Below, one piece after another: positions 1-47,614 of a stretch of DNA of 48,288 bases. Position numbers and translations under genes: made by a program. Under the pieces are notes generated by a model that did no database searches, was not told the DNA's origin, and saw nothing but the letters and a program-made list of their open reading frames with translations. Position 1 is the first letter of the stretch. Every line of letters begins with the position of its first letter. Source of the DNA: a plasmid; the sequence record NZ_CP009216.1; one strand, written 5' to 3'.

Positions 1-23
1 GGTTCAATTCCCGGCGGCTCCAC
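1..23 (+). tRNA. 3' end of a host tRNA gene (T-arm and 3' acceptor strand); the 5' part lies outside the window
   Basis: GGTTCAATTCC T-loop/stem followed by a GC-rich 7-nt acceptor strand and CCA-like end. An integrase gene lies immediately downstream, as expected for attL at a tRNA 3' end. Confidence 0.55.
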
Positions 24-29
24 CGAGGG

Positions 30-157: not shown

Positions 158-1384
158 ATGGCCCGGAGAAGAACCTGGGGCAAAATCACCAAAAAGCGGA
201 CACGCTTCTACGCCGAATACACCGGCCCCGACAGCAAACGCCACACCCCCGGCCACAGCTTCGCAACCCGGGGCGACGCGGAGGGCTGGCTCGCCCACGA
301 ACGCCGCCTAATCGACCTCGACGCATGGGAGCCCCCCACAACCCGCGCAGCCAAGGCGGAGGCGGACGGCATAACCGTTGGGGAATGGCTGGAAACCTAC
401 CTCGAAATCCTGACGTCACGGCTGAAGCCGTCGACGCTGCAAAGCTATCGGAGGGAAGTACACAACCGCATTCTCGCCCCACTCCCGCCCGGGGACAGTG
501 ACCCACGGGTGGTGGGGCTGAAAAACATTCCCCTCACCCGCCTCACAACAGCGGACGTGTACAAGTGGTGGGACGGCCTGCAAGCCGCCTACCCCGACGC
601 GAAGACAACGAACCAGCATGCCTACAAGCGACTTCGAGCCGCGTGCGCAGAAGCCGTCCGGCGCGAGATGATAGACGCGAACCCCGCGGCAGTACGGGAG
701 GCCGGCAAGCGGGTACAGGCGCAGGAGAAGTACCTGCCGGAGGACTGGGAGCTCGCCGCGATACTCGACCACATGGACGCCGCGTACAAGCCGTTGACGT
801 CGCTCATCCTTCATCATGGGGCGCGTATCGGTGAGGCTATAGCGGTGGAGGTGGAGGATGTGACGGTGACGCCGCGCCCGGTGCCGTGGCTCCCTAAAGT
901 CGCCGTGGCGGTACGGCAGAACGCGCAGCGTCTCACCATCGACGGGAAAACCCGGATGGTGGTCATGTCCACCCCCAAGACGTCCGCGGGGAGGCGCACG
1001 ATACCCATCATGGACGCGGACGCCCCGCTGTTCCTCGCTCACCTATGGGCGCATGACGGGTTGGCCACGTTGGTAGAGACTGACCGTGGGACGCGCAAAA
1101 TGGTGCTGCTCACCCGCACCGCGACGGGGCAGATGGTGATGGACACCAGCTACCGCAGTATCTTGAACCGGGTGAAGCGGCGGGCCGGCGTCGACGCGGG
1201 TATCAACCCTCACACCGGGAGGAACTGGCTGATTACCCGCTTGGCGGAGCAGGGCGCGCACCTGAAGGAGATAGGCGCGCTGCTGGGGCAGGATGATGTT
1301 TCCACCATCCTCGACGTGTACATGAAGGTGCGTTCCGGGCGTACGGACGAGCTCATGGAGCGGGTGAGCGCCACCCTCCGGTAG
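158..1384 (+). CDS. int: tyrosine-type site-specific integrase
   Basis: 408-aa ORF. N-terminal SAM-like/arm-binding region and C-terminal catalytic motifs (LHHGARIGE, NPHTGRNWLITRL HxxR, ILDVYMKV tyrosine). It sits adjacent to the tRNA end. Confidence 0.9.
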   Translation: MARRRTWGKITKKRTRFYAEYTGPDSKRHTPGHSFATRGDAEGWLAHERRLIDLDAWEPPTTRAAKAEADGITVGEWLETYLEILTSRLKPSTLQSYRREVHNRILAPLPPGDSDPRVVGLKNIPLTRLTTADVYKWWDGLQAAYPDAKTTNQHAYKRLRAACAEAVRREMIDANPAAVREAGKRVQAQEKYLPEDWELAAILDHMDAAYKPLTSLILHHGARIGEAIAVEVEDVTVTPRPVPWLPKVAVAVRQNAQRLTIDGKTRMVVMSTPKTSAGRRTIPIMDADAPLFLAHLWAHDGLATLVETDRGTRKMVLLTRTATGQMVMDTSYRSILNRVKRRAGVDAGINPHTGRNWLITRLAEQGAHLKEIGALLGQDDVSTILDVYMKVRSGRTDELMERVSATLR

Positions 1385-1441: not shown

Positions 1442-1618
1442 ATGGCTGCAACCTTGCTCACTCGACAGCAGGCCGCGGACATTGTCGGCTGCAATGTCCG
1501 CACGATTGACCGGCGTATCCGGTCAGGCGACCTACCGGCCCGACGCTCAGGAAGGATGGTGCGTATCGACCCGGCAGACCTCGACAGGATGTTCAGCGAC
1601 CCGAAACGCTGGGCCTAG
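1442..1618 (+). CDS. xis: excisionase-like / MerR-type HTH DNA-binding protein (58 aa)
   Basis: GGAGAAAGGA RBS 10 nt upstream of the ATG. QQAADIVGCNVRTIDRRIRSGDLPARRSGRMVRIDPADL is a typical Xis/HTH_17 pattern. It is below the 60-aa track cutoff. Its stop overlaps the repressor stop (CTAG). Confidence 0.6.
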   Translation: MAATLLTRQQAADIVGCNVRTIDRRIRSGDLPARRSGRMVRIDPADLDRMFSDPKRWA

Positions 1619-1971
1619 CGTTCCAGCTGCTCGATAAGGTTCAGCGCGGCTGGTAGTAGCCGGTCAGGTAGACCCTCCACCTTGCTGTGGAGGGTCTTTC
1701 TTTGCACGTCGGCGGGGTTGTAGCCGGCTGCGGAGAGAACCGCGTGGGGGTCTGCGCTGACTGCTTTAGCGGCGGCGGTGAGCTTCTCCACAGAGGGGTT
1801 GACGGGTGTGAACTCGCCGTTGATAAGGTGCCCGCCGTCTTCTATGCGCCTGTAGAACGTGGGGGTTATTCCGGCGTTGAGGGCAGCTTGGCGTTTAGAC
1901 AGTCCCGCCTGTTCTCGGGCGGTTTGGAGTATGCGCCCGGGGAGCCATTGTGGGGGCGGGTTGGGTGTCAT
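1615..1971 (-). CDS. XRE-family HTH transcriptional repressor (cI-like), divergent from the early operon
   Basis: 118 aa with HTH QTAREQAGLSKRQAALNAGITPTFYRRIE. It is oriented opposite to the early genes and is followed by an AT-rich promoter region. Confidence 0.75.
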   Translation of the reverse strand: MTPNPPPQWLPGRILQTAREQAGLSKRQAALNAGITPTFYRRIEDGGHLINGEFTPVNPSVEKLTAAAKAVSADPHAVLSAAGYNPADVQRKTLHSKVEGLPDRLLPAALNLIEQLER

Positions 1972-1992
1972 GGGTTTTAGCGTATCGCACTA

Positions 1993-2030
1993 GGTTTGAC
2001 TTTTTTACAAACTGTGTACTAGAGTGCATA
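1993..2030 (+). promoter_or_regulatory. early rightward promoter/operator box A (TTTGACTTTTTTACAAACTGTGTACTAGAGT), with GTGTACT/AGTACAC and AGAGTGC(A/G)TAC repeats nearby
   Basis: TTGACT -35 element with TAGAGT (TAnnnT) about 19 bp downstream, in an AT-rich island of a 65% GC genome. It is paralogous to boxes at 5918 and 11935. Confidence 0.45.
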
Positions 2031-2056
2031 CCAGTACACACCGCAGAGTGCGTACA

Positions 2057-2072
2057 CCGGGCTGCAACCCGG
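2057..2072 (+). promoter_or_regulatory. CTGCAA-loop hairpin copy 1 (CCGGG-CTGCAA-CCCGG); a degenerate second copy lies at 2091-2104
   Basis: Member of the 8-copy hairpin family upstream of GGAGAAAGGA RBSs. Confidence 0.5.
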
Positions 2073-2143
2073 CAAAACGAAGGCCCGGCTGGCGCTGCAA
2101 CACCAACCGGGCAAAGACGCTCACGGAGAAAGGAATTCAGACC

Positions 2144-2755
2144 ATGAGCACCTCTAATCCTAACCACCCCGCCACACAGGGGCAACTAACCAAAAACGAG
2201 CGCGCAGCACGCCTCATCAAGCAGAAGTTCGTGCTCGACATGCTGTACGCCGTCCACAAAGACGAAACCGCCGAGCTCGCCGCGCAGTACGAACCCGGCG
2301 ACAAGGCCGAAATCAAGAACGACAACGGCGTGAAGATTGGCACCGTGTCCATGTCCACCCCGAACAAGAAGGCGGTGCCGGACGATGATTCCGTGCTGCT
2401 GGGCTACGCCGTCGAGCACGGCCACGAGGTCGAGGACATGCTGCCGGCCAACGGCACACCGGAAGCCGCGGAAATCGTGAAGCTGGTCGAGGCCGCAGGC
2501 CGCGAAGACCTGCTGGTGCCGTCCGTGACCGCAGAGGTGGAGAAGGAAGTCTGCCAGGAGGTTCTGAAGGGCTGGGAGTTCAGCGGGGGCAAGGAGCTGC
2601 CGTTGGGCTGGGAGATTCAGGACGCCTCGAGCCCGCGATTCACAGTGGCGAAGGGGCGCAGCGCGCAGGCGAAGGCCGCGTTCGAGCGCGAGATGGAACC
2701 GATTAAGGACGCGCTGGCGCAGTCAGCGTTCCGCGAGATTGAGGAGGGCAAGTAA
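2144..2755 (+). CDS. hypothetical early protein (203 aa), first gene of the rightward operon
   Basis: ATG preceded by GGAGAAAGGA. The longer track ORF 2024..2755 has no RBS at its upstream start. Confidence 0.7.
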   Translation: MSTSNPNHPATQGQLTKNERAARLIKQKFVLDMLYAVHKDETAELAAQYEPGDKAEIKNDNGVKIGTVSMSTPNKKAVPDDDSVLLGYAVEHGHEVEDMLPANGTPEAAEIVKLVEAAGREDLLVPSVTAEVEKEVCQEVLKGWEFSGGKELPLGWEIQDASSPRFTVAKGRSAQAKAAFEREMEPIKDALAQSAFREIEEGK

Positions 2756-2757
2756 CA

Positions 2758-3789
2758 ATGACCATCACCACTAGGAAACCCACCGGGCAGACCTCATGGC
2801 CGTTTATCCTCCTCGCCGGCGTCGAGGGTGGAGGTAAAACTTGGGCCGCTGTCGAAGCAACCGGCATGGAATCGGTCGACAGGGCATTCTTCATCGAGCT
2901 TGGCGAGGGCATGGCCGATGAATACGGGCAGGTTCCGGGTGCTGACTTTGAAATCATCGAGCATGACGGCACCGTGGGGATGATTCGTGAGGCGATTGCG
3001 TGGGCGTCGGCGCACCCCGCTGCTGAAGGCAAGAACAACATGCTCATCTTCGATTCGCTCACCGAATTGTGGGAGCTGATCACGGAGAATGCGCAGGCCG
3101 AGGCAAACCGGCGCGCCACCCGCAAGGGGCGCAAGATTCCCGAGGGTGGCATTCGTATTGACATGGATCTGTGGAACCGGGCTGGCGACACCTGGGAGGG
3201 GGTGATGGGCCAGCTGCGTCGATTCCCGGGTGTGGTGATCGGCACCGCCCGCCTGGAGAAGGTCACGCTTATGGACGATGAGGGCAGGCCGACGAAGGAG
3301 AAGGACTGGAAGATTCAGGCGCAGAAGCGCTTGCCGTACCGGGTGCAGGTGATTGTGCAGGCCCGTCAACCCCGCACCTGGACAATGACGAAGATCGCTA
3401 CCACGGTTCCGGCGTTGCAGCTGCAGCCCGGGCAGGAGCGGACGTTCAACGACTTCTCCGTGGTGAAGCTTTTGGAGACGATGGGGGTGGGGGCGAATAC
3501 CGCGCCGGCGACGTTCCGCGAGGCGGTGCAGGACGATTCACTAGCCGATAATCCACAGCCGAAGCAGAAGCCGCAGCAGGAGGCGACGGCAGAGCAGCTG
3601 GCGGAGTTCGCTCGCAAGGCTACCGAGCAGTCCGACGAGGCGCTGAAGAAGGGGCTGGTGTACTACCAGCGCATGAAGGACACGCAGCGGGTGGAGATTG
3701 TGCAAGCGGAGATTAGCCACCGGGCGCAGCGCAACGTGCAAGACCAACTCGACGGGGAGGTGGTTGAGGGTGAGCTTGTCGAAGCCTAG
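2758..3789 (+). CDS. RecA-like NTPase (AAA_24 / Sak4-like recombination ATPase)
   Basis: Walker A ILLAGVEGGGKTWAA, a Walker B-like hydrophobic-D/E stretch, and an acidic C-terminus. The position is typical for phage recombination genes. Confidence 0.65.
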   Translation: MTITTRKPTGQTSWPFILLAGVEGGGKTWAAVEATGMESVDRAFFIELGEGMADEYGQVPGADFEIIEHDGTVGMIREAIAWASAHPAAEGKNNMLIFDSLTELWELITENAQAEANRRATRKGRKIPEGGIRIDMDLWNRAGDTWEGVMGQLRRFPGVVIGTARLEKVTLMDDEGRPTKEKDWKIQAQKRLPYRVQVIVQARQPRTWTMTKIATTVPALQLQPGQERTFNDFSVVKLLETMGVGANTAPATFREAVQDDSLADNPQPKQKPQQEATAEQLAEFARKATEQSDEALKKGLVYYQRMKDTQRVEIVQAEISHRAQRNVQDQLDGEVVEGELVEA

Positions 3790-3967
3790 CCTGCGCGCCC
3801 TTAGCTGGCGTGACCGCCAGGCGGTGCGGGTTATCGATTGGTGCATTACCCACTTGCCGTCGCGGGAGCTGTCCGAGGCCATTACGGAGGCGTTGAGCGC
3901 GGGGACAGTGCAGGTGCTCCTAAGGCACCTGCAGGAGTGGGAACGGCGCGCCAGGCCAAACACCTAG
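3770..3967 (+). CDS. hypothetical small protein (65 aa), GTG start overlapping the upstream stop
   Basis: In-frame GTG inside track ORF 3698..3967. The upstream part of that ORF overlaps the ATPase gene. Confidence 0.4.
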   Translation: MSLSKPSLRALSWRDRQAVRVIDWCITHLPSRELSEAITEALSAGTVQVLLRHLQEWERRARPNT

Positions 3968-3969
3968 AC

Positions 3970-3983
3970 GGGGCTGCAACCCC
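3970..3983 (+). promoter_or_regulatory. CTGCAA-loop hairpin copy 2 (GGGG-CTGCAA-CCCC)
   Basis: Followed by GGAGAAAGGA at 3997 and the ATG at 4019. Confidence 0.5.
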
Positions 3984-4018
3984 AATTTTGAAGCACGGAG
4001 AAAGGAAAAGCACGGACG

Positions 4019-4402
4019 ATGAAGCGTTCCTACATGAAGCGCAAACCCGCGAAGAACGGGCGGGTGCCGGAGGAAGTGTACGCGGCGGTGATGATGCGCA
4101 ACGGGGGCCGGTGTGAGGTCGGATTCCCCGGTGTCTGCACCGGGCGGGCGGAGGAGTTTCACCACCGCCAGTCGCGGGGGGCGTCGCGCAACCCGCACAC
4201 CATCGGGAATGGTTGCGCGGCGTGCCACGCCTGCCACGACTACCTGACGCACCGCTCCCCGCAGGCGGGGCGCGACGTGGGGGCCGTGGTGTCGCGCCAC
4301 TACACCGGCGACCCGGCGTATAAGCCGATGAAAGTACCGGGCCGGGGCTGGGTGTACCTCACCCCGGGCGGTGGCTACGAGAAAGCCGAGGGGGTGCAGT
4401 AA
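4019..4402 (+). CDS. HNH-family endonuclease
   Basis: Cys/His pattern CEVG..C...EFHHRQSRG..RNPH...NGCAACHACH, consistent with an HNH/zinc-ribbon nuclease. Confidence 0.6.
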   Translation: MKRSYMKRKPAKNGRVPEEVYAAVMMRNGGRCEVGFPGVCTGRAEEFHHRQSRGASRNPHTIGNGCAACHACHDYLTHRSPQAGRDVGAVVSRHYTGDPAYKPMKVPGRGWVYLTPGGGYEKAEGVQ

Positions 4403-4623
4403 TGAGGCAGGTAGGTATACCCGCTGACTTGTCGGCCATGCCCCCACGGGCGTTGAAGGTGTACGCGGTGCTGGCCGCGAATCGGTGGCCCCAAGGGTTG
4501 ACGGTGAATCAGGTATCGGGTCTGACCGGGTTGACGTGGCGCACGGTGGATACCGCGTTGGAGGAGCTACGCGCAGCCGGCTACCTGGACGAGCACAACC
4601 AGCCGGTGGGAGGTGCTGCGTAG
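4402..4623 (+). CDS. winged-HTH DNA-binding protein (73 aa)
   Basis: LTVNQVSGLTGLTWRTVDTALEELRAAGYL. It is paralogous in fold to the N-terminus of the next gene. TAATG start overlap. Confidence 0.55.
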   Translation: MRQVGIPADLSAMPPRALKVYAVLAANRWPQGLTVNQVSGLTGLTWRTVDTALEELRAAGYLDEHNQPVGGAA

Positions 4624-5475
4624 GTGGCGATTTATCGTGACGGCTCCATTGACGAGAACTGGGCGACGATTCCCAACGCCCTGTTTCGTTCCGGGTTCCC
4701 GCTGCGTGTGGTCGCGGTGCTGGGGAACCTGCTCACGCACCGGCCTGACTTCCCAGTGACGGTGAAGCTCATGGCCGAGCAGCTCGGTGTGACCCCGAAG
4801 ACGGTCACGCAAGCGATCAATGACTTGGAGGAGCTGGGGTTGGTTGAGCGTGTCCCGGTTCCTGGGGAGCCTGGCAAGTTTGGGCGGAATGACTACCGGC
4901 TGCGTGAGCAGCGTTTGGTGACGTGGCAACCGGAGGTAAAAAATACCGACGGTGAGGGGGAGCCGGAGGTAAAAATTACCCACGGGCCGGAGGTAAAAAT
5001 TACCCACGGGCCGGAGGTAAAAAATACCTACATAGAAGACCAAGATAAAACACTAGGTAGAACACCAACTTCCCCCCAAGCCCCCCAAGGGGGGCAGGGG
5101 GAGCTGGCCGTCCCGGTGCCGAGCCTCGCGGAGGACTTCGCGGACTGGTACGCGACCTATCCGCGGAAGGTGGGGAAGAAGGACGCGGAGAGGGCGTACA
5201 AGCGGGCCCGCAAAGACGGGGCGACCCGGGAGGAGCTGCTGGCCGGTGTCGAGCGTTCGGTGCGTTCCTGGCGCGTCGAGGGGCGCAGCAAGGACAAGCT
5301 GCCGTACCCGGCCACCTGGTTGAACCAGGGGCGCTGGGAGGACGAGGAAACGCTCGGCGCGGACGTGGGGCAGCGCGGCGATTATCAGCCAACGGCGAAT
5401 GATGTGGCGCAGCAGATGATTCAGCGCATGCAGCAGCAGCGCCAGGGCAACGAGTGGAAGGAGCTTGAGCGGTGA
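4624..5475 (+). CDS. replication initiator / replisome-organizer-like protein with N-terminal wHTH and internal iterons
   Basis: N-terminal wHTH (VKLMAEQLGVTPKTVTQAINDLEELGLVERV). The middle region encodes PEVK(N/I)T repeats from DNA iterons. C-terminal WYATYPRKVGKKDAERAYKRA...YPATWLNQGRWEDEE is typical of phage DnaD/primase-associated C-terminal domains. Confidence 0.6.
   Translation: MAIYRDGSIDENWATIPNALFRSGFPLRVVAVLGNLLTHRPDFPVTVKLMAEQLGVTPKTVTQAINDLEELGLVERVPVPGEPGKFGRNDYRLREQRLVTWQPEVKNTDGEGEPEVKITHGPEVKITHGPEVKNTYIEDQDKTLGRTPTSPQAPQGGQGELAVPVPSLAEDFADWYATYPRKVGKKDAERAYKRARKDGATREELLAGVERSVRSWRVEGRSKDKLPYPATWLNQGRWEDEETLGADVGQRGDYQPTANDVAQQMIQRMQQQRQGNEWKELER
4927..5025 (+). repeat. four 18-bp direct repeats CCGGAGGTAAAAA(T/A)TACC (iterons; candidate origin of replication) inside the initiator gene
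   Basis: Copies at 4927, 4960, 4984 and 5008 with spacings of 33/24/24 bp. They form an AT-rich core inside a GC-rich gene. Confidence 0.6.
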
Positions 5476-5909
5476 CGCCCGAGGAGAAGATTGAGCTTGC
5501 CGGCAACGTGATTACCTACGGCAAGGCGCTGGCACCTGACCGGTTCCCGCGCCCCACGGAGCAGGTGGTGGCCGTGTGGGCCGACGTGCTCGGGTCTATC
5601 AGCGTGCCGAAGGGCGTGTGGCCGGAGGCGGTGCGTGTGTGGGCCGTGGAGATTGCGGGGGAGCGGATGTGTACCCCGCGGGAGCTGAAGCAGGCTGCGC
5701 GGGCTGTGCTGGCGCGGTGGGAATCCGAGCCGGTGAAGCGTGAGCTGCTGGCTGCGCACCGTGAGGCGCGGCGGGTGCAGCGTGACCGGGAGCTGTCGGA
5801 GGGCCGGTTTGGTGAGGTGCGTGGGCACGCAAGGCCGGTGCTGGAATCGCGGCCTGTGGTGTCGGGTGCGGTGTTGGACGCGGTGAAGGATGTTGTAAAG
5901 CGTGTTTGA
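5472..5909 (+). CDS. hypothetical protein (145 aa), GTG start overlapping the upstream stop
   Basis: ORF track entry. It is translationally coupled to the initiator gene. Confidence 0.55.
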   Translation: MTPEEKIELAGNVITYGKALAPDRFPRPTEQVVAVWADVLGSISVPKGVWPEAVRVWAVEIAGERMCTPRELKQAARAVLARWESEPVKRELLAAHREARRVQRDRELSEGRFGEVRGHARPVLESRPVVSGAVLDAVKDVVKRV

Positions 5910-5917
5910 CCTGTACG

Positions 5918-5948
5918 TTTGACATTATTACAAACTATGGAATAGGAT
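5918..5948 (+). promoter_or_regulatory. promoter/operator box B (TTTGACATTATTACAAACTATGGAATAGGAT), preceded by a GTTTGAC direct repeat
   Basis: TTGACA -35 and TAGGAT -10-like element about 18 bp apart. It is paralogous to boxes A and C. Confidence 0.4.
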
Positions 5949-5966
5949 TAGGGCAACAACGAAAGA

Positions 5967-5980
5967 GGGGCTGCAACCCC
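5967..5980 (+). promoter_or_regulatory. CTGCAA-loop hairpin copy 3 (GGGG-CTGCAA-CCCC)
   Basis: Located 16 nt upstream of the ATG at 5996, with an AGAAAGGA RBS between. Confidence 0.5.
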
Positions 5981-5995
5981 AGAAAGGACACCGCG

Positions 5996-6211
5996 ATGAA
6001 AACCACCGCCGACAACCTCACCGCACAGAACATCGTCGACAAGCTCGAAACCGAGATGGCCATGCAGAACGGTTGGGAGTTCAGCACCACCCTGAAGGAA
6101 TCCCTCGAAGACACCGTCCAAGAGCTTATGTACGCCGACGGCTCAGCCCTCCCTGCGTTCCTCCGCGACCTGGCCTACGCCCTCGACAACCTGGCCCTCG
6201 AGCTCGACTAA
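5996..6211 (+). CDS. hypothetical small acidic protein (71 aa)
   Basis: ATG with RBS. The track ORF 5906..6211 extends upstream without an RBS. Confidence 0.6.
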   Translation: MKTTADNLTAQNIVDKLETEMAMQNGWEFSTTLKESLEDTVQELMYADGSALPAFLRDLAYALDNLALELD

Positions 6212-6258
6212 CCGCAACCGCCAGCCTCCGGGCCGGCAATCAGCCCGACCAGCAGGCA

Positions 6259-6306
6259 GGGGAGTGCGAGCCTCCCCACGGGCACTAGGGGCACCCGCCC
6301 CGCACC
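6259..6306 (+). promoter_or_regulatory. intergenic GC hairpin element A (GGGGAG-tgcgagc-CTCCCC, then ACGGGCAC...TAGGGGCACCCGCCCC)
   Basis: Paralogous to elements at 12228, 7605 and 6965. It is terminator-like or a processing-site candidate. Confidence 0.4.
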
Positions 6307-6311
6307 AAGAC

Positions 6312-6325
6312 GGCGCTGCAACGCC
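6312..6325 (+). promoter_or_regulatory. CTGCAA-loop hairpin copy 4 (GGCG-CTGCAA-CGCC)
   Basis: Located 18 nt upstream of the ATG at 6343. Confidence 0.5.
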
Positions 6326-6342
6326 GAGGAAGGAACACAACG

Positions 6343-6627
6343 ATGGACATGCTGCTCGAACGCGCACCCCACATCGCAAAGCACTGGCGGAGGGTGGGTG
6401 ACCACCTCGCGTACGAGAACCTCACCGCGACCCTCGACTTCGACCCGGGGTGCCACGCCATCACGTTGCGCAACGAGGACAACGGGAACACCGAAACGAT
6501 CCGCGTCATGACCGTGCGCAGCGTCGGGGCAGTCCTGCAGACGGCGCGCCTCGCCTACGACCTGCTGGCCGGCCCCGAGGCTCCGCGTGACCCCGAGGTG
6601 GACACGCTCGACGGGTGGGAGCGGTAG
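6343..6627 (+). CDS. hypothetical protein (94 aa)
   Basis: ORF track entry with an RBS. Confidence 0.6.
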   Translation: MDMLLERAPHIAKHWRRVGDHLAYENLTATLDFDPGCHAITLRNEDNGNTETIRVMTVRSVGAVLQTARLAYDLLAGPEAPRDPEVDTLDGWER

Positions 6628-6848
6628 TGAACAGCAAAGCGCAGGAAGCCGACCGGGTGCGCATGGAGCGCGCCCTGCTCGGTGCCGGCATGGACGCGAA
6701 GCGGGCGTTGGAGAGCGCCGCCCGGGTAGCTCCGTACGACGAGCGACTGCGGGCATGGGAGGCGCTGGCAGACGCGGCGTCCCGGGCGAACCAGGCCCTC
6801 GCCGGGTACATGACCGAGTACGGGCTGATGGGGAAGGAGGGCGAGTGA
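6627..6848 (+). CDS. hypothetical protein (73 aa), GTG start overlapping the upstream TAG
   Basis: In-frame part of track ORF 6615..6848. Confidence 0.45.
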   Translation: MNSKAQEADRVRMERALLGAGMDAKRALESAARVAPYDERLRAWEALADAASRANQALAGYMTEYGLMGKEGE

Positions 6849-6964
6849 TGGAGGCTGCAATGCAGGTCGAGTTCTGGAACGCGGTGCTCGACGTGGCGTG
6901 GGTGCTGCTGCCGCAGGAGTGCCTGAACGCCCTGGCGTACAACTAGCGCGGGTGGAACCCTCTC

Positions 6965-6991
6965 CGGTTCGAGGCCGGGGCGCGCACGAGG
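6965..6991 (+). promoter_or_regulatory. intergenic GC hairpin element D (CCGG-ttcgagg-CCGG, then GGCGCGCACGAGG)
   Basis: Weaker member of the hairpin+CGGGCAC family. Confidence 0.3.
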
Positions 6992-7016
6992 TGGCAACAC
7001 CGCCACCACTACTAGA

Positions 7017-7032
7017 CCGGGCTGCAACCCGG
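7017..7032 (+). promoter_or_regulatory. CTGCAA-loop hairpin copy 5 (CCGGG-CTGCAA-CCCGG)
   Basis: Located 18 nt upstream of the ATG at 7050. Confidence 0.5.
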
Positions 7033-7049
7033 AGGAAGGGGACACCACC

Positions 7050-7502
7050 ATGTCCAAGAAGCCAGAATCCGCCCCCATGTCGGAGTACGCCGGCGCAACG
7101 CTAGACGAGCTGCCGAAGACCAACCCGCCCCGCTCATACGACGACGTGAAGCCCTACTGGGGCAATGTTGAGGGCGCGCAGCTGTTCACGGTGAACCAGC
7201 TGGTGCTGGAAACTCCGGAGCTGCTCGACCTGTGGAAGACGCTGGTGGCTGCAGCACACGAGAACCCGCTTGCCGAGGTGGACGGAACAACCATTCGCCG
7301 TGTGGCCGACGGCGACGAGATTAACCGCCAGATTCGGGAGAAGCGGTCCCGCTACGACCAAGAGCGCGAGGCGTTCCACCGACTGATCAACGGCGAGGTC
7401 AAGTACACCGTCTACCCCTCCACCACCAGCTACTACATGGAGCGGGAGAACATCGGATGGGATGAGGACTGGGTGCAGGAGAATTACCCCTCCCAGTCCT
7501 GA
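7050..7502 (+). CDS. hypothetical protein (150 aa)
   Basis: ORF track entry with an RBS. Confidence 0.65.
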   Translation: MSKKPESAPMSEYAGATLDELPKTNPPRSYDDVKPYWGNVEGAQLFTVNQLVLETPELLDLWKTLVAAAHENPLAEVDGTTIRRVADGDEINRQIREKRSRYDQEREAFHRLINGEVKYTVYPSTTSYYMERENIGWDEDWVQENYPSQS

Positions 7503-7604
7503 CCGCCACCGGAGCCGGGCGATACTGCGCCTCGTGCCGACGGCTGGCACACCACACAATCGAATAGGTAGCCCGCGCCGGGCCCGCGCCCTTCACCGGG
7601 TGCG

Positions 7605-7652
7605 CTGCGGTTCAACCCCGCAGGCGGGCACGCAGGGGCGGTGGTGCGTTTT
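7605..7652 (+). promoter_or_regulatory. intergenic GC hairpin element C (CTGCGG-ttcaacc-CCGCAG, then GCGGGCAC GCAGGGG ... TTTT), tRNA T-arm-like
   Basis: A 6-bp stem plus TTCAACC 7-nt loop followed by the conserved CGGGCAC/CAGGG motif and a T tract. It lies in a 293-bp non-coding gap. Confidence 0.4.
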
Positions 7653-7766
7653 GGCGTACTTCAGCACCGCGCAAGGGCGTACCCGCTCACGGGCAATGCG
7701 ACGGCACTATTCCCACCGTCGCGGGAGCGGCACTGCGACCCTGCGCCCCTCACCAACGTCACAAGA

Positions 7767-7780
7767 CCGGCTGCAACCGG
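7767..7780 (+). promoter_or_regulatory. CTGCAA-loop hairpin copy 6 (CCGG-CTGCAA-CCGG)
   Basis: Located 16 nt upstream of the ATG at 7796. Confidence 0.5.
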
Positions 7781-7795
7781 AGAAAGGACACCACA

Positions 7796-7999
7796 ATGAA
7801 ACTGCCCACCTTCACGGCCCTGGGCAACCTCGAAGGCGCACTCACGGGCGCGCTCGAGGAATGCTACGAGGCGCTGCACAGCTACCAAGACGCCGGCCTC
7901 GACAAGCCGTACGTCCACGCGAAGCTGAACCAAGCGGTCGCGGAACTGCGCGAGGCACAAAGCTACCTCCGCGCCTTCCCGGGGGCACCGTCGGCATGA
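7796..7999 (+). CDS. hypothetical protein (67 aa)
   Basis: ORF track entry. The long ORF 7462..8316 in another frame is R/P-rich and spurious upstream of 7996. Confidence 0.6.
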   Translation: MKLPTFTALGNLEGALTGALEECYEALHSYQDAGLDKPYVHAKLNQAVAELREAQSYLRAFPGAPSA

Positions 8000-8316
8000 T
8001 GGGCACGCAAGACCCGCTGTGGGGCGAAACGCACCCGGCAGAAGCCGCCTACTACGCCAACATTGCTGTGCACCGCGGCTGGCACGTCGCAGCAGACCGG
8101 GCTATGGGCTACCTGGCGAACACCGGGCGTGAGTTCACCGCCGACGATTTACGCCGCCTCCTCGACCAGGCCGGCGACCCCACAACCCCGAACGCATACG
8201 GAGGCCTCCTCATGGCCTGGTCGCGCCGCGGGATTATCCGCAAGACCGGATACCGCTGCTCGACGCAGCCGAAGCGCCACGGAGGGGTGAACGCCGTATG
8301 GGTAGGCACCAAGTAG
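7996..8316 (+). CDS. hypothetical protein (106 aa), ATGA start/stop overlap
   Basis: C-terminal part of track ORF 7462..8316, starting at ATGATG. Confidence 0.55.
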   Translation: MMGTQDPLWGETHPAEAAYYANIAVHRGWHVAADRAMGYLANTGREFTADDLRRLLDQAGDPTTPNAYGGLLMAWSRRGIIRKTGYRCSTQPKRHGGVNAVWVGTK

Positions 8317-8477
8317 GGCACTGCCAGTACAGCCGCTGCACGGGGTTCATAGACCCCCACGACCGGCTAGGAGCGTACTTCGGGCTGTGCCCAACGCACG
8401 CCCGAGACGCGGAGACGAAACTGAAACTCAACCGAGACGAATTCAACGCAAGGAACAGGAAACATGGCACTTCCTAA
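8298..8477 (+). CDS. possible small Cys-containing protein (59 aa)
   Basis: ATG with CQYSRC...CPTH spacing. It bridges the gap to SSB and is below the track cutoff. Confidence 0.25.
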
Positions 8478-8961
8478 CATCAACATCGAGGGCGGAACCC
8501 TGGTCACAGACCCGGAGCTGCGCTACACCCCTTCGGGCGCTGCGGTGGCGAACTTCCGCGTCGCTGCCAACAGCCGCCGGTTCAACAAGGAGACGAATCA
8601 GTGGGAGGGCGGCGACACCACGTTCCTCACCTGCAACATCTGGCGGGAGGCCGCGGAGAACGTGGCCAACAGCCTGCAGAAGGGCATGCGGGTGAACGTC
8701 ACCGGCGAGCTGCAGCAGCGCTCCTACCAGACGAAGGAGGGGGAGCAGCGCACCGTGTTTGAGGTGAACGTGCGCGAGGTGGCTCCGTCGCTGAAGTTCG
8801 CCACCGCGCAGGTGAACCGCAACCAGTCGAATGGCGGCGGGGGTCAGCAGCAGGGTGGCTGGGGGCAGAAGAGCGGCCAGACGCCGCAGAATGACCCGTG
8901 GGGCGGCGCGACCGGCGACACGGGCGGGTTCGGCGGCGGCGACCCGGAGCCGCCGTTCTAG
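8464..8961 (+). CDS. ssb: single-stranded DNA-binding protein
   Basis: OB-fold N-terminus, Gly/Gln-rich linker and a C-terminal DPEPPF acidic tail. Confidence 0.9.
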
Positions 8962-9021
8962 GAACGCTCGCCGGGTAAGGTAACGGCGGGAACACAGAAA
9001 ACAACAAGGGAGACGGAACCC

Positions 9022-9441
9022 ATGAATAAGAAAATTGCAGCTTTGGCCGCGGCCACCGCGCTCACCCTCACCGCGTGCGGCGACACCTCCGACGAGGACG
9101 CAGAGCCAGCCACCAGCACCTACGAGTACAAAGACCCAGTAGATGAACAGGCGAAACCTACCCATGATTGGCTCATGGAGCAGGGTGCGAAGTCTGTAGG
9201 GCTGTCAAACGATACATTCCGCAGCGTCGTTATTTTGTCTTGCGGGTACGCGGAACAGGAACAGTCAGAGTCCCTTGAGACAATCCGCGCCAAGGGGGAA
9301 TCTGCAATTCGTGCCCAGGTGAAGGACGTACCGGAGGATAAGGTGACCCCGGCGTTCTTAGCAGCTACCGCTACGGGTTGCCCTCACCTTATTCAAGGGC
9401 AGGGCGTGAATGGTTTGAAGCTAGTTCTTGCGGGGCAGTAG
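9022..9441 (+). CDS. secreted lipoprotein (signal peptide + lipobox LTAC), low-GC moron
   Basis: MNKKIAALAAATALTLTACG. The gene is clearly lower in GC (about 52%), with A/T-ending codons. Confidence 0.7.
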   Translation: MNKKIAALAAATALTLTACGDTSDEDAEPATSTYEYKDPVDEQAKPTHDWLMEQGAKSVGLSNDTFRSVVILSCGYAEQEQSESLETIRAKGESAIRAQVKDVPEDKVTPAFLAATATGCPHLIQGQGVNGLKLVLAGQ

Positions 9442-9641
9442 TGGACAGTGAGCATGACGAGCTGTTGGCCGCTGCCGTTGAGGCGCACCAGGACTACGAA
9501 GGCGCGGTGGAGGCTGCTAAGGCTGCACGCCGTTTGGAGTTCCAGCGAGCCGTAGACGGTGGAGTGAGCCGTGGGCAGATTGCGCGCCGGTTGGGTCGTT
9601 CAACAGCGTGGGTGAGCCGGATTGTTTCTGGCGACCGCTGA
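9441..9641 (+). CDS. small HTH DNA-binding protein (66 aa), GTG start
   Basis: C-terminal HTH VSRGQIARRLGRSTAWVSRIV. Overlaps the lipoprotein stop. Confidence 0.45.
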   Translation: MDSEHDELLAAAVEAHQDYEGAVEAAKAARRLEFQRAVDGGVSRGQIARRLGRSTAWVSRIVSGDR

Positions 9642-9644
9642 CCA

Positions 9645-9673
9645 TTGACAAAATGGCAAGGGTCGGGTAAGTT
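9645..9673 (+). promoter_or_regulatory. strong sigma-70-like promoter TTGACA-17-TAAGTT
   Basis: Near-consensus hexamers with 17-bp spacing, upstream of the antirepressor gene. Confidence 0.5.
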
Positions 9674-9676
9674 AAA

Positions 9677-9716
9677 GGGCACTAGGTCACTTAGACCTGG
9701 TGCCCGATATTTTTGG
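9677..9716 (+). terminator. 29-bp palindrome GGGCACTAGGTC-actta-GACCTGGTGCCC followed by ATATTTTTGG (terminator/attenuator or operator)
   Basis: A 12-bp stem with 1 mismatch plus a T tract, located immediately after the promoter -10. A further hairpin follows at 9718-9745, and an RBS-sequestering hairpin CAACTaataaggAGTTG at 9754-9770. Confidence 0.5.
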
Positions 9717-9774
9717 GCCACGGCGGTGCTACCAACACCCCGTGGCGTGGACTCAACTAATAAGGAGTTGAATC

Positions 9775-10620
9775 ATGGGTCAGTTTGTCATACCCGCAGG
9801 GGCAGAACAATCCCCCACCCCTTTTGACGTGTATCGCCAGGAGCGCGAGGACGGCTCCGAGTTTTGGAGCGCCCGCGACCTCGCCCAACTCATGGGCTAC
9901 CGCAAGTGGCAGAACTTCGAGAACGCACTGAACCGCGCCATTAAGGCAGCGCACAACCAAAAAATGGACGTTACCAGCCTTTTTATCCGATCTAGTAAAA
10001 AGACCGCGGGCCGTCCACAAGAGGACTACGAGTTAACCCGGTTCGCGGCGTACCTCGTCGCCATGAACGGCGACCCTAACAAGCCGGAAGTCGCGTCCGC
10101 GCAGGCATACTTCGCCACCCGCACCCGCCAGGCCGAAACGCAGCAACCCGCACAACTCACGGACGAGGAACTACTCTCCCGTGCCCTCATGGTGGCCAAC
10201 TCCAAGATGGAGCGCCTGGAGGCCGAGAAGGCCGAAGCGGTGGAACTCTCCGAGGCTGCAATGGCGCGTGCCCACGTCGCGGAAGCCGAAGCGGACGAGG
10301 CGCGCCCCAAGGCAGAGGCGTTCGACAGTTTCATGCGAACCGACGGCACCTACTACATGGGTGCAGTAGCGAAAATGCTGGGCATGGGGCAAAACGAGTT
10401 GTTCCGCAGGCTACGGAAGGAACGAGTGCTTATCCCGTCGGGGCACCTGTACAACACCCCGTACCGGCAGTATGAGCGCTACTTTCTGGTTCGTCCGCAC
10501 AAGTATGTTAACGCGGACGGGCGGGAGTTCTTGAAGCACACAACGTACGTGAAGCCGGCGGGGGTTGAGTTTATCCGACGACGGCTGGGGGTTGAGGCTC
10601 CGTTCGTTTCCGTGTCGTAG
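9775..10620 (+). CDS. phage antirepressor (Bro-N/DinD-like N-terminal domain + KilA-C C-terminal domain)
   Basis: N-terminal FWSARDLAQLMGYRKWQNFENALNRAIKAAHNQ (Bro-N/DinD signature). C-terminal MGAVAKMLGMGQNELFRRLRKERVL...NTPYRQYERYFLV (KilA-C). Confidence 0.7.
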   Translation: MGQFVIPAGAEQSPTPFDVYRQEREDGSEFWSARDLAQLMGYRKWQNFENALNRAIKAAHNQKMDVTSLFIRSSKKTAGRPQEDYELTRFAAYLVAMNGDPNKPEVASAQAYFATRTRQAETQQPAQLTDEELLSRALMVANSKMERLEAEKAEAVELSEAAMARAHVAEAEADEARPKAEAFDSFMRTDGTYYMGAVAKMLGMGQNELFRRLRKERVLIPSGHLYNTPYRQYERYFLVRPHKYVNADGREFLKHTTYVKPAGVEFIRRRLGVEAPFVSVS

Positions 10621-10771
10621 TTGGTTTCACGGAGAAGGGGAGTTTTGGGGTAGTGCTGCAACGCTATCCCCGGCCATGTAATTAGAACGTGTGTTCGTGT
10701 ACGTCGCAAATGTGTTCTACCATTGACGGCACCGAGCCGACCGCATAACCACCCGGAGCAGACTTCCTAAC

Positions 10772-10951
10772 ATGATTGAGACAACAGCCCTCACCCCGCC
10801 TGGTGCGCCCTGCAAAGTCACCAGGGCGCACGACCCGAAGGACACCTTCACCGCCTACGAAATAGAGGTCAACGGCCAAACCATCGAGCTAGAACCCTCC
10901 CACGTCGCGGAGCTCTCCCGCGTGCTCACCCTCATTGCGGGTGGGAACTGA
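10772..10951 (+). CDS. possible small protein (59 aa)
   Basis: ATG with a weak GGAG. It is below the track cutoff. The overlapping - strand ORF 10855..11943 is R/P-rich and spurious. Confidence 0.3.
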   Translation: MIETTALTPPGAPCKVTRAHDPKDTFTAYEIEVNGQTIELEPSHVAELSRVLTLIAGGN

Positions 10952-10984
10952 AACCGCTCGCAATACACACCCGATGGTGTTAGT

Positions 10985-11557
10985 GTGGCCGATGTGGAAG
11001 GCGCGAAATGCACATACCAAGACCGGGAGCTGTTTACCAACCCGGCTGGCCGTGACGCACCATCGACAGTGCGTGCGATACAGATTTGCGAAGAGTGCCC
11101 CATCATCAACCAGTGCGCGAAGCAGGCGCTGACAGCCGGCTCAAGTATCGACTTCAGCAACCAACACCCCGCGGTCGGTGTGATCCAGGCCGGGGTGTAC
11201 TGCGACGGCTCGCAGCGCGCAGCTATGGAGCTCGCGGCCCGGGCGGGGGAGCTTCCCCCTGCCGTCGAGGTGACGCCGCGGGCGAAGGCAGGGGACAGGT
11301 GCAAAAGCTGCGGCACGCCAATGGTGCGGTGGACGCGTGACCGTGTGCCGGACGGGTACGCAATGCACCGGGGGCGGGGGTTCTGCACGAACTGCCGTAA
11401 GGCGTACAACGAGGAGTTGGCTCGGGCCCGGGCTAATGGTGAGGTACGGGTGGGGCTGCGGAAGCAGGTTGACCGGAAGCGCCACTCGGCCCCGCCCCGC
11501 CGTGACCGCGAGGTGGTTATCCAGTTCTCGTTGTTTGAGCGGGAGGCGCTGGCGTGA
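10985..11557 (+). CDS. whiB: WhiB-like Fe-S transcription factor with an extra C-terminal zinc ribbon
   Basis: C-x22-ICEECPIINQCAKQAL (CxxC-x5-C) WhiB signature, and a C-terminal CKSCG...CTNC. Confidence 0.7.
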   Translation: MADVEGAKCTYQDRELFTNPAGRDAPSTVRAIQICEECPIINQCAKQALTAGSSIDFSNQHPAVGVIQAGVYCDGSQRAAMELAARAGELPPAVEVTPRAKAGDRCKSCGTPMVRWTRDRVPDGYAMHRGRGFCTNCRKAYNEELARARANGEVRVGLRKQVDRKRHSAPPRRDREVVIQFSLFEREALA

Positions 11558-11940
11558 CGCAGTGGGACTTGAAGTTGCCGTGGGTGAAGCCGCCGCTGTC
11601 GCTCAATGACCGCGAGCATTGGGCTCCTAGGGCGAAGAAGCAGAAGGCGGTGCGGGAGGCGTCGGCGCTGCTGGCTCGGCAGGCGGGTATCCCGCGGTTG
11701 GGGACGGCGAAGGTGCGGCTGGTGTGGTTGGTGGCTGACCGGCGTCGGCGTGACCGGGAGAACATCACTGCGACGCTGAAGCCTGCGATTGACGGGCTGG
11801 TGGACGCGGGTGTTGTTGAGGATGACTGCTGGTGGATTGTGACTGAATCGTCGTGTGCGATTTCGTTGGTAGAGAAGGGGTGTGAGGGGGTTTACCTGCA
11901 GGTTTTGGGTGAGCCGGAGGGCGTTTCGGTTTCCCTTTGA
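11554..11940 (+). CDS. rusA: RusA-like Holliday-junction resolvase
   Basis: RRDRENITATLKPAIDGLVDAGVVEDD matches the RusA D-x-D-N...K...D...DD pattern. GTGA overlap. Confidence 0.6.
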   Translation: MTQWDLKLPWVKPPLSLNDREHWAPRAKKQKAVREASALLARQAGIPRLGTAKVRLVWLVADRRRRDRENITATLKPAIDGLVDAGVVEDDCWWIVTESSCAISLVEKGCEGVYLQVLGEPEGVSVSL

Positions 11941-11966
11941 CATTATGACAAAGTGTGTAATAAACT
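11935..11966 (+). promoter_or_regulatory. promoter/operator box C (TTTGACATTATGACAAAGTGTGTAATAAACT)
   Basis: TTGACA -35 and TAAACT -10-like element. It is a 17-bp quasi-palindrome, paralogous to boxes A and B. Confidence 0.4.
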
Positions 11967-11988: not shown

Positions 11989-12002
11989 GGGGCTGCAACC
12001 CC
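11989..12002 (+). promoter_or_regulatory. CTGCAA-loop hairpin copy 7 (GGGG-CTGCAA-CCCC)
   Basis: Located 15 nt upstream of the ATG at 12017. Confidence 0.5.
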
Positions 12003-12016
12003 AGAAAGGACACAAG

Positions 12017-12211
12017 ATGGCCACCTACGCCACCACCGCCGACTACATCGAGCAGAACATCACCCCGGGCCTCGGAGATGTCGAGCTCACCAGCGAGCAA
12101 GCGCAGGAAGTCGCCCACCGCATGACCGAATGGAACGAGGACGGCCAGCTCGTGGAGCGCGAGGGCATGGACTTCTGGGACGTCGTAGCCGACGTCCGCG
12201 GCGACAACTAG
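12017..12211 (+). CDS. hypothetical acidic protein (64 aa)
   Basis: ORF track entry with an RBS. Confidence 0.6.
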   Translation: MATYATTADYIEQNITPGLGDVELTSEQAQEVAHRMTEWNEDGQLVEREGMDFWDVVADVRGDN

Positions 12212-12227
12212 CCCGACAAGGCAGGCA

Positions 12228-12262
12228 GGCGGGTTCAAGCCCCCGCCACGGGCACCAGGGCC
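12228..12262 (+). promoter_or_regulatory. intergenic GC hairpin element B (GGCGGG-ttcaagc-CCCGCC, then ACGGGCAC CAGGGCC)
   Basis: Closest paralog of elements A and C. Confidence 0.4.
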
Positions 12263-12287
12263 AACCGGCCCGCACAACCACATAGAC

Positions 12288-12301
12288 CGCGCTGCAACGC
12301 G
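12288..12301 (+). promoter_or_regulatory. CTGCAA-loop hairpin copy 8 (CGCG-CTGCAA-CGCG)
   Basis: Located 18 nt upstream of the ATG at 12319. Confidence 0.5.
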
Positions 12302-12318
12302 GAGAAAGGAACCCCGTC

Positions 12319-47165: not shown

Positions 47166-47612
47166 TTATTTCACCCAGCGCTGCACCGTGGACGGGGTGC
47201 GACCGCACAGCTTCGCCACCTGGTACGCAGTCACGTCGTACGACATAGCGTCGCGCACCCACTCCGTGCGGGCGTCTTTCAGCTCCGTGGTGACCGCTTC
47301 GAGCTCGCGCACCTGGTCGTCGGACCACTTAATCTGGGCCATGTAGACGGCCTGGTGGTAACCGTCGCGCCCAGCCCGCGCCTTAGCGAGCGCGTCCGCA
47401 AACAGGCTTTCCACCCACACGCGCTGCTCCGGTGCAAGCTCGGACATGGCATTGTCGTAGTCGGCTTCCGACGCGGCCAAGCTCTCGCGTGCGGAGCGCA
47501 GTGCCACGGCGTTACCGCCGGCGACCTCCGCGCCCACAGCCTTAGCCGCCAAGCCGATGAGGATGATCTTCTCGCCAATGTGGGAGAGGGTATCCGGGCT
47601 GATGATTTGCAC
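47166..47612 (-). CDS. hypothetical protein with a C-terminal HTH (148 aa); second gene of the right-end - strand operon
   Basis: C-terminal YQVAKLCGRTPSTVQRWVK HTH. GTG start overlapping the upstream stop. Confidence 0.55.
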   Translation of the reverse strand: MQIISPDTLSHIGEKIILIGLAAKAVGAEVAGGNAVALRSARESLAASEADYDNAMSELAPEQRVWVESLFADALAKARAGRDGYHQAVYMAQIKWSDDQVRELEAVTTELKDARTEWVRDAMSYDVTAYQVAKLCGRTPSTVQRWVK

Positions 47613-47614
47613 GG

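Follow-up and report, generated by a model that had tools for sequence, protein, structure and literature searches.

Three predicted sigma-A-type promoters with a conserved spacer block, and CUGCAA-loop hairpins before early genes, in a Corynebacterium prophage

Three short AT-rich boxes were analyzed in a stretch of 48,288 nucleotides from sequence record NZ_CP009216.1 (referred to as a whole as the window), which is a temperate Corynebacterium prophage of about 48 kb, complete-looking and integrated in ssrA. Comparison with related prophages gave good support to the assignment of all three boxes as sigma-A promoters. We regard it as an even bet that the complete arrangement consists of three strong promoters of this type, with the operator of the phage repressor in an inverted repeat at box 1 and a second factor acting at a block of bases conserved in the spacers between the -35 and -10 hexamers. 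The original prediction, according to which the boxes were stoperator-like copies of a dispersed immunity operator, is mostly not supported by this comparison. The analysis shows the motif statistics, the promoter-type conservation, the positions, and the comparative patterns; promoter activity, start sites, protein-site pairings, and the direction of regulation are inferred from sequence.

The shared motif had been claimed at positions 1993-2030, 5918-5948, and 11935-11966. When the window was searched on both strands with the degenerate 24-mer TTTGACWTTWTKACAAASTRTGKA, allowing up to 3 mismatches, exactly three matches were found, all on the plus strand (1995-2018, 5918-5941, and 11936-11959), while 100 shuffled sequences gave an expectation of 0 matches; the coordinates first given enclose these cores, and the search for further copies proposed at that time added none in the 48-kb window. 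The 17-mer TTTGNNNTTNTNNCAAA was confined to the same three positions (0.05 expected). The predicted -35 and -10 hexamers were present in each box, and their spacing was 18 nt in all three instead of the 18-19 bp originally proposed:

1995-2025, plus strand: box 1, predicted early lytic promoter, with -35 TTGACT (1996-2001), an 18-nt spacer and -10 TAGAGT (2020-2025); orthologous in all relatives
5918-5948, plus strand: box 2, predicted internal sigma-A promoter, with -35 TTGACA (5919-5924) and -10 TAGGAT (5943-5948)
11936-11966, plus strand: box 3, predicted internal sigma-A promoter, with -35 TTGACA (11937-11942) and -10 TAAACT (11961-11966)

A neutral sigma-70 scan ranked the boxes as the top three sigma-70-type sites of the 48-kb window (score 9-10 of 12). 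They are, as had been stated, AT-rich islands with 27-30% GC versus 64.6% for the window, and the GC content over 200 nt falls to 0.515-0.545 at each of them. The expected CTGCAA hairpin followed by a gene was likewise found after each box (hairpins at 2057-2072, 5967-5980, and 11989-12002; gene starts at 2144, 5996, and 12017), with a Shine-Dalgarno (SD) sequence lying between hairpin and gene. A candidate antisense promoter within boxes 2 and 3 (TTGTTT-19-TAGTTT) was discarded, as it occurs only in copies with AAACTA and is not conserved.

Relatives of the prophage were collected as contigs encoding homologues of its first early protein (54-97% identity), which yielded about 12 distinct prophages or phage genomes from human metagenomes; one homologue is encoded in Corynebacterium coyleae (L107). 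Orthologous box positions were found in the window and in L107, L109, L113, L116, L119, L122, L125, L126, L129, L130, L131, L132, and L136, with box 1 in the gap that separates the repressor gene from the first early gene, box 2 after a conserved gene for a 145-amino-acid (aa) protein, and box 3 after a RusA-like gene downstream of the WhiB gene. Among 25 distinct copies, orthologous or paralogous, the -35 bases TTG and the -10 bases T1, A2, and T6 were invariant (25/25), whereas positions 4-6 of the -35 (0.4-0.8 bit) and position 3 of the -10 (0.16 bit) varied, positions 4-5 of the -10 were weakly conserved, and fourteen different -10 hexamers occurred. Since the contact bases are fixed and the other hexamer positions are free, this pattern is the footprint expected of functional housekeeping (sigma-A) promoters. 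The boxes also agree with the sigma-A consensus of C. glutamicum, TTGNCA / GNTANANTNG (PMC3917453), in which a TTGNCA-like hexamer and TAnAnT are expected 16-19 nt apart. The motif is not a common host promoter sequence, which would have spoken against a role in phage regulation, since about 43 kb of host DNA beside the prophages yielded no further box. A scan of IMG/VR with a loosened box pattern returned 106 single matches, all in low-GC contigs (at most 52% GC), and these were dismissed as chance.

Between the hexamers, the block TT(A/T)TTACAAA(C/G)T(G/A)TG (TTATTACAAAC..TG) was more conserved than the variable hexamer positions, AA being present in 25/25 copies, C in 22/25, and TG in 23/25, and it was kept although the neighboring proteins are only 60-77% identical. 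Conservation was asymmetric, with the left half (NNN) free and the right half (TTACAAA) fixed. To judge from these substitutions, the block is under purifying selection. Boxes 1 and 2 were alike only in the segment from the -35 to the spacer, their flanks being unrelated, and boxes 2 and 3 changed jointly within genomes, so that both read TTATTGCAAACTGTGC with a 16-nt spacer in L107 and both read CAAACTATGTTATATACT in L113. In L119, the relative that has diverged furthest, the block was replaced by the dyad TGCGAAAAGTTTTAGCA in three internal promoters (5885-5913, 7372-7399, and 11413-11441), in which AAAAGTTTTAGCA was identical at 13/13 positions while the -10 hexamers, leaders, and flanks had all diverged; no copy of this dyad was present at box 1 of L119. 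These three observations argue for selection by a trans-acting factor, and the dyad of L119 provides, in our view, the best argument for a spacer reader distinct from the immunity repressor. The block is not a general property of promoters of this phage, because a further promoter, located before the antirepressor gene (9646-9674), lacks it.

The predicted quasi-palindromic character of the shared core held in part, as the outer TTTG/CAAA pairs were always complementary, but the inner four pairs were symmetric in 0/4, 2/4, and 3/4 cases in boxes 1, 2, and 3, respectively. Over 17 distinct copies, inner-pair symmetry amounted to 34/68 versus 29.9 in shuffled sequences (P about 0.015), a marginal excess, although the 17-mer formed a perfect 7+3+7 palindrome in two boxes of L107 (boxes 1 and 2) and in box 1 of L126/L129.

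Box 1 lies in a divergent region together with the following features:

1615-1971, minus strand: CI-like repressor of the XRE family, 118 aa, with a single helix-turn-helix (HTH) and no peptidase domain (Pfam HTH_31/HTH_3); orthologues in every relative
1979-1984, minus strand: inferred -10 (TACGCT) of a leaderless promoter of the repressor gene, 7 nt upstream of its ATG
2013-2055: half-sites specific to box 1, TGTGTACT (2013-2020), AGTACACA (2033-2040), and GTGCGTAC (2048-2055), bracketing the -10 and the start site
2057-2112, plus strand: leader of box 1 with two CUGCAA-loop hairpins (2057-2072 and 2083-2112); 2-3 tandem copies in relatives
2144-2755, plus strand: first early gene, 203 aa, phrog_29726

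The sequence TA(C/A/G)GCT or TAGAAT/TAGACT stands exactly 7 nt before the repressor ATG in the intergenic regions of all 12 lineages (1972-1984 in the window, minus strand), and it is often preceded by TGnGn, an arrangement that suggests a leaderless mRNA for the repressor. Box 1 and this putative promoter are back-to-back, 11 bp apart, and box 1 would serve as the early lytic promoter of a lambda-like divergent switch. Reading the 17-mer palindrome as two back-to-back -35 elements (TTGACT rightward and TTGTAA leftward for the repressor) was rejected, because 20 nt would lie between such a -35 and the repressor -10 in each of the lineages counted.

The half-sites TGTGTACT and AGTACACA form a perfect 8+8 inverted repeat around the -10 of box 1, with GTGCGTAC as a third, related half-site. 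In the window lineage this repeat accompanies a repressor with the recognition helix ITPTFYRRIE, and in L107 and L132, where the repeat is the same, the helix is of the TPSFY type, with TP(T/S)FY kept. The repeat is replaced by AGTGCGC / GCGCACT in L126 and L129, the helix of which is ISPTHYRQLE, and by GTGAGTAG / GTACTCAC in L119, with the helix LSQTYYRWIE. L133 has the repeat GCGGGGGGTA / TACCCGC and no repressor gene on its contig; the start of this contig (1-21) resembles a Nextera adaptor (…AGATGTGTATAAGAGACAG), and its first 200 nt or so, where the repressor gene is missing, are untrustworthy. Because the repeat changes as a unit together with the predicted recognition helix, we read it as the immunity operator. 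The XRE repressor is therefore likely to have its operator in the inverted repeat of box 1 (TGTGTACT...AGTACACA, plus GTGCGTAC) rather than in the shared core. Beyond the window lineage, a single case was informative: box 2 of L129 lacks the GTGCGC half-site, which suggests that the repressor's own operator is found only at box 1.

Boxes 2 and 3 share a cassette of about 85 nt in most lineages, composed of the promoter, the leader GTACAAACAAAGACAGA (about 35 nt), the hairpin GGGGCUGCAACCCC, and the SD sequence AGAAAGGA:

5967-5988, plus strand: CUGCAA hairpin (5967-5980) abutting the SD sequence AGAAAGGA (5981-5988); gene start at 5996
11989-12010, plus strand: CUGCAA hairpin (11989-12002) abutting the SD sequence AGAAAGGA (12003-12010); gene start at 12017

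The stop codon of the gene preceding box 2 is at 5907-5909, 9 nt before the box, and that preceding box 3 is a TGA (11938-11940) inside its -35, with no terminator in between in either case. Since the upstream stops abut or overlap the boxes and terminators are missing, boxes 2 and 3 are internal or booster promoters in this interpretation, and not heads of insulated units. The claim that the boxes head early transcription units has thus to be narrowed: the boxes are paralogous, of sigma-A type, and stand at the head of gene blocks of the early region, but boxes 2 and 3 do not, strictly speaking, head separate units. Box 2 would initiate transcription anew, or reinforce it, ahead of the middle block (small genes, SSB, antirepressor, and WhiB), and box 3 would do the same for the block leading into the late genes. 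The first open reading frames (ORFs) after boxes 2 and 3 were compared for paralogy and showed no similarity.

The most likely explanation of the spacer block is a second sequence-specific DNA-binding factor, be it a phage protein or a host regulator, that would bind it and occlude RNA polymerase; a site in the spacer implies such occlusion, i.e. repression. We rate the existence of a further phage or host factor reading the block as close to a coin toss, if anything a little less, and the binder is probably not the XRE repressor. Several points weigh against this explanation. Among about 30 early proteins, Pfam, PHROGs, and PDB sequence searches detected no second conserved DNA-binding regulator; the DNA-binding proteins recognized were limited to the XRE repressor, the Xis-like protein, WhiB, and the replication initiator. 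Boxes 2 and 3 are near-consensus and would need another silencer in the lysogen if the repressor does not bind them. In the window lineage, box 1 shares the spacer block with boxes 2 and 3, and the latter two keep a degenerate TGTGTA...GTACAAAC resembling the half-sites of box 1, with members 10 and not 14 nt apart. The covariation of repeat and helix rests on three informative lineages, L113 being ambiguous, and the two downstream half-sites might rather represent an RNA hairpin at the 5' end of the transcript. In the same searches, no function was assigned to the 203-aa and 145-aa proteins, the C-terminal part of WhiB had no DNA-binding match, and the 128-aa protein encoded after WhiB was weakly RusA-like. 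A proteome table of the relatives contained no protein specifically lost or replaced in L119 alongside its spacer swap.

The original proposal that the XRE repressor, as a dimer, occupies the shared core of every box, so that one immunity repressor shuts three early promoters, seems improbable to us. It draws on the repressor being the only conserved HTH regulator of the lysogeny module, on the overlap of the core with the -35 and spacer, where a bound protein would block RNA polymerase, and on the perfect palindromes of L107 and L126/L129 with the slight excess of symmetry over shuffles; it would also account for silencing of boxes 2 and 3 in lysogens. Yet box 1 of L107 and box 1 of L126 contain an identical perfect 17-mer while their repressors differ in the recognition helix, box 1 of L119 lacks the dyad of the three internal promoters though the repressor must control box 1, and box 1 of L113 shares 6/17 spacer positions (hand count) with its boxes 2 and 3. 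Moreover, box 1 of the window has no symmetric inner pair, and the one-sided conservation described above counts against the proposal as well. As the helix covaries with the repeat confined to box 1 and not with the shared 17-mer, this proposal is weakly supported. It is also unlikely, in our estimate, that no trans-acting factor is involved at all and that the boxes are duplicated cassettes, their spacers being similar through common descent, gene conversion between copies, and a selective advantage of AT-rich spacers that melt readily in a high-GC host. The weak palindrome, the 85-nt cassette common to boxes 2 and 3, and their joint change in L107 and L113, as gene conversion would produce, all speak for this view. 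It fits poorly with the restriction of the likeness between boxes 1 and 2 to the -35 and spacer amid unrelated flanks, with the 13/13 bases retained in L119 while -10 hexamers, leaders, and upstream flanks diverged completely, with fixed bases that are specific (C-A-A-A and T-G) and not generally AT-rich, and with the unrelated, GC-richer spacer of the antirepressor promoter.

A last alternative, to which we give little credence, is that the AT-rich islands are targets of a host factor, either a xenogeneic silencer of the Lsr2/CgpS type, which nucleates on AT-rich DNA, or a host regulator with a TTTGCAAA-like site; each of them would tie the internal promoters to host physiology. In favor of this, the GC content drops sharply at each box, the searches among phage proteins yielded no candidate binder, the block persists in lineages that differ in their repressors, and the boxes of L107 contain TTGCAAA. 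On the other hand, silencers generally need longer AT-rich tracts, while the islands are only about 33 bp long, and base-specific conservation would not be expected for a silencer. The site of C. glutamicum RamB is AA/GAACTTTGCAAA, and the boxes match it by eye at only 8-9 of 13 positions; L119 uses a different dyad, and the 43 kb or so of flanking host DNA showed no box copies. Both an Lsr2/CgpS-type and a RamB-like reader serve as leads. Of the host motifs compared by eye, GlxR, LexA, CIRCE, and DtxR do not fit the box, and RamB fits partially. If a dedicated reader of the spacer block exists, it would be a second regulator of the lysis-lysogeny program, and the box might provide a compact regulated promoter for Corynebacterium engineering.

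The CUGCAA hairpins were not limited to the boxes. The window contains 9-10 of them, and 86 distinct copies were collected in the relatives by a search that required three inner stem pairs and the CUGCAA loop. Besides those listed above, the window has the following:

3970-3983, plus strand: CUGCAA hairpin upstream of the gene at 4019
6311-6326, plus strand: CUGCAA hairpin with SD sequence upstream of the gene at 6343
7017-7032, plus strand: CUGCAA hairpin with SD sequence upstream of the gene at 7050
7767-7780, plus strand: CUGCAA hairpin with SD sequence upstream of the gene at 7796
10647-10670, plus strand: long (9-bp) CUGCAA hairpin after the antirepressor gene
12287-12302, plus strand: CUGCAA hairpin with SD sequence upstream of the gene at 12319

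The loop, which was also a search criterion, is fixed, and the closing pair is G-C in 80/86 copies. The stems, usually of 4-6 bp (up to 9 bp in the window), covary freely: 88.5% of the cells were paired and 69 cells had double changes, a result reached by 0/500 shuffles, and the fourth stem pair, which the search did not demand, was paired in 47/52 cases. In 110 kb of early regions of the relatives, 81 hairpins were on the plus strand versus 1 on the minus strand; the late regions (62 kb) were devoid of them, and the host DNA (43 kb) had 0 on the plus strand and 1 on the minus strand. An SD-like sequence lies 2-3 nt beyond the stem in 37/86 copies; the sequence that the hairpins usually precede at this distance is AG(A/G)AAGGA, next to a start codon. 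The free covariation of the stem, the fixed 6-nt loop, and the SD sequence 3' of the hairpin together indicate an RNA structure that is read through its loop. The loop holds the self-complementary UGCA, with which loop-loop kissing is possible. In the leaders of box 1 (9881-9990 in L107, 9879-9990 in L116, and 2057-2140 in the window) 2-3 hairpins stand in tandem, and several of them are followed by the SD-like AGAAAGGAAA with no start codon; such sites might act as decoys or standby sites for ribosomes, or they might belong to a recognition element of two parts. A 21-mer comprising hairpin and SD sequence was absent from GTDB representative genomes and IMG/VR, and it had 2 matches in JGI metagenomes.

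A second RNA-like element, a tRNA-like minihelix, directly follows the stop codon of the first small ORF in the units of boxes 2 and 3:

6243-6287, plus strand: minihelix 1, an acceptor-like stem GCCCG/CGGGC around a T-arm-like hairpin, then ACUA
12211-12257, plus strand: minihelix 2, GCCCG...GGCGGG-TTCAAGC-CCCGCC-A-CGGGC-ACCA

Its general form is GCCCG, a 6-bp stem with a T(T/G)C(A/G)A(G/C)(C/T) loop, and CGGGC, followed by ACCA or ACUA, the acceptor-like stem being 5 bp long. Twelve distinct copies with compensatory changes were found in the relatives (e.g. GCCTA/TAGGC in L119). ARAGORN identified no tRNA in the window, and Rfam contained no family for either hairpins or minihelices, the end of tmRNA being its only match. 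The minihelices were also considered as secondary att sites; this was rejected, since they fold like the tmRNA 3' end and have a different sequence. They may be a signal for processing by RNase P or another tRNA enzyme, and our working idea is that hairpins and minihelices would together act as mRNA punctuation and in the control of translation initiation.

The promoter before the gene of the ANT/Bro antirepressor (TTGACA-17-TAAGTT, 9646-9674, plus strand) is a fourth good promoter of the window. It is directly followed by a conserved 12-bp hairpin with a T-run (9677-9714), which looks like an attenuator, a terminator, or a small RNA, and the whole region (9646-9714) is conserved in L113, L116, L131, and L136. 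Between the antirepressor gene and the genes for a 59-aa protein and the WhiB-like protein lies TAGAACGTGTGTTCGT (10683-10698, plus strand), also found in L107, which matches GAAC-N4-GTTC, the core of the actinobacterial LexA box. This match suggests SOS control of the sub-operon for the 59-aa and WhiB-like proteins.

The remaining features that define the prophage are at its left end:

1-25, plus strand: 3' terminus of the host gene for tmRNA, on the attL side (match to model positions 350-374 of Rfam RF00023 with E=2.4e-7)
158-1384, plus strand: tyrosine integrase (Pfam Phage_integrase)
1442-1618, plus strand: excisionase-like HTH_17 protein, 58 aa (Pfam PF12728, E=3e-11)

The prophage was placed in ssrA because of this tmRNA 3' end and because the relatives L107 and L112 adjoin smpB. 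All relatives share the gene order int, xis, repressor (leftward), and early genes (rightward), and they are integrated either next to smpB/ssrA or at a second site; L109, L122, and L126 occupy a different site, beside a GlpR-like gene, despite a similar integrase. About 45 kb of rightward genes encode functions in recombination and replication, SSB, the ANT/Bro antirepressor, a WhiB-like protein, ThyX, and a portal that is about 30% identical to those of Streptomyces, Gordonia, and Rhodococcus phages; a 2395-aa ORF presumably encodes the tape measure protein, to judge from its size alone. Megablast and blastn searches of the region against cultured phages gave no match, and neither GTDB representative genomes nor IMG/VR yielded a relative in protein-guided scans. 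The conserved genes are interspersed with mosaic modules (2758-3789 and 4402-5475 in the window, and in relatives). The recombinase slot is filled by an AAA_24, ERF, or Slr1353_N-type protein, depending on the relative. The replication initiator (283 aa) is highly variable across relatives, and a 73-aa ORF upstream of it corresponds to the N-terminus of that PHROG, so that the two proteins look like a split replication initiator. At the right end, by attR, there are two leftward genes (47166-48082, minus strand), one for a 148-aa protein with a weak HTH_23 match at its C-terminus and one for a protein of 155 aa; this pair is not found in the circularly assembled relatives L116 and L130 and may be cargo expressed in lysogeny.

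As promoters, the boxes are ordinary, and their practical value is a transcription map, comprising the lambda-like switch of box 1 and a pair of internal boosters, for a widespread and uncultured prophage family of human-associated Corynebacterium. The comparison separates two layers, an immunity-specific operator at box 1 versus a spacer element common to the family. The hairpins and minihelices are the more unusual part. They led us to a tentative and rather speculative proposal, in which the boxes would belong to a modular expression code of this family, made up of the fixed-spacer promoter, the CUGCAA hairpin before the SD sequence of about 10 early genes, and the minihelices, with early mRNAs gated by a loop-binding factor (a phage protein, a host protein, or UGCA loop-loop kissing) and by tRNA-processing enzymes such as RNase P. 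If true, this would be a layer of post-transcriptional control not described for actinophages.

Of the known regulatory systems, Cluster A phages (L5, Bxb1, and TipsytheTRex) resemble this prophage in being temperate actinophages with a co-oriented repeat at more than one place of the early region, one copy of which overlaps the early lytic promoter beside the repressor gene. The orientation of the boxes along transcription (all three are on the plus strand, like the genes) is trivial, since the copies are the promoters themselves. The stoperators of Cluster A are more than 20 asymmetric 13-mers, mostly located in short intergenic gaps away from promoters, where they block elongation, and they are bound by a monomeric repressor of about 183 aa with an HTH and a Stoperator domain (PMC9283540). 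Here, three copies in 48 kb, each a complete -35/-10 promoter, go together with a small repressor with a single HTH, and we therefore reject the stoperator reading. A PDB sequence search with the 118-aa repressor gave only weak matches to XRE, MBF1, and HigA proteins, and the Cluster A repressor was not among them.

Phage lambda offers a closer parallel at box 1: the repressor gene and the early lytic operon diverge from a region of about 170 bp, inverted-repeat operators cover the lytic -10 and start site, and operator and recognition helix change together in heteroimmune relatives. In contrast to lambda, the prophage repressor is a 118-aa XRE protein without a RecA-cleavable domain, its mRNA is apparently leaderless, and no cro-like gene was recognized here, the first early gene encoding a 203-aa protein. 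Induction would probably proceed through the antirepressor (ANT/Bro, 9775-10620), and possibly through LexA. In phiC31, the repressor reportedly has multiple conserved inverted-repeat operators close to a family of near-identical early promoters (work by Smith, Ingham, and colleagues in the 1990s). If so, phiC31 is the nearest analogue, as a temperate actinophage with several near-identical early promoters that share an element beyond the -35 and -10. Its early promoters are said not to follow the sigma-A consensus and its operators to be numerous, whereas here the three promoters are of the textbook sigma-A kind and repressor binding at boxes 2 and 3 is doubtful.

The sigma-A promoters of C. 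glutamicum have TTGNCA, TAnAnT, and a G/TG-containing extended -10 in common with the boxes, but the -35 of the host is poorly conserved and its spacers are not conserved, whereas the phage boxes have a near-perfect -35 and a fixed spacer block (PMC3917453). The CUGCAA hairpins, in turn, recall the start-associated sequences (SAS) and extended SAS (ESAS) of Cluster K mycobacteriophages in that they are present in about 10-19 copies per genome, at non-structural genes only, in one orientation, immediately upstream of start codons, and retained ahead of orthologous genes. In the SAS, the SD sequence itself forms part of a fixed 13-mer, GGGATAGGAGCCC, and RNA pairing of the ESAS found no support (PMC3203893). 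The hairpins described here lack this 13-mer, their loop and G-C closing pair are fixed while their stems vary, and the SD sequence lies outside the element, so that, together with the minihelices, they could make start-associated actinophage repeats of the SAS type experimentally approachable.

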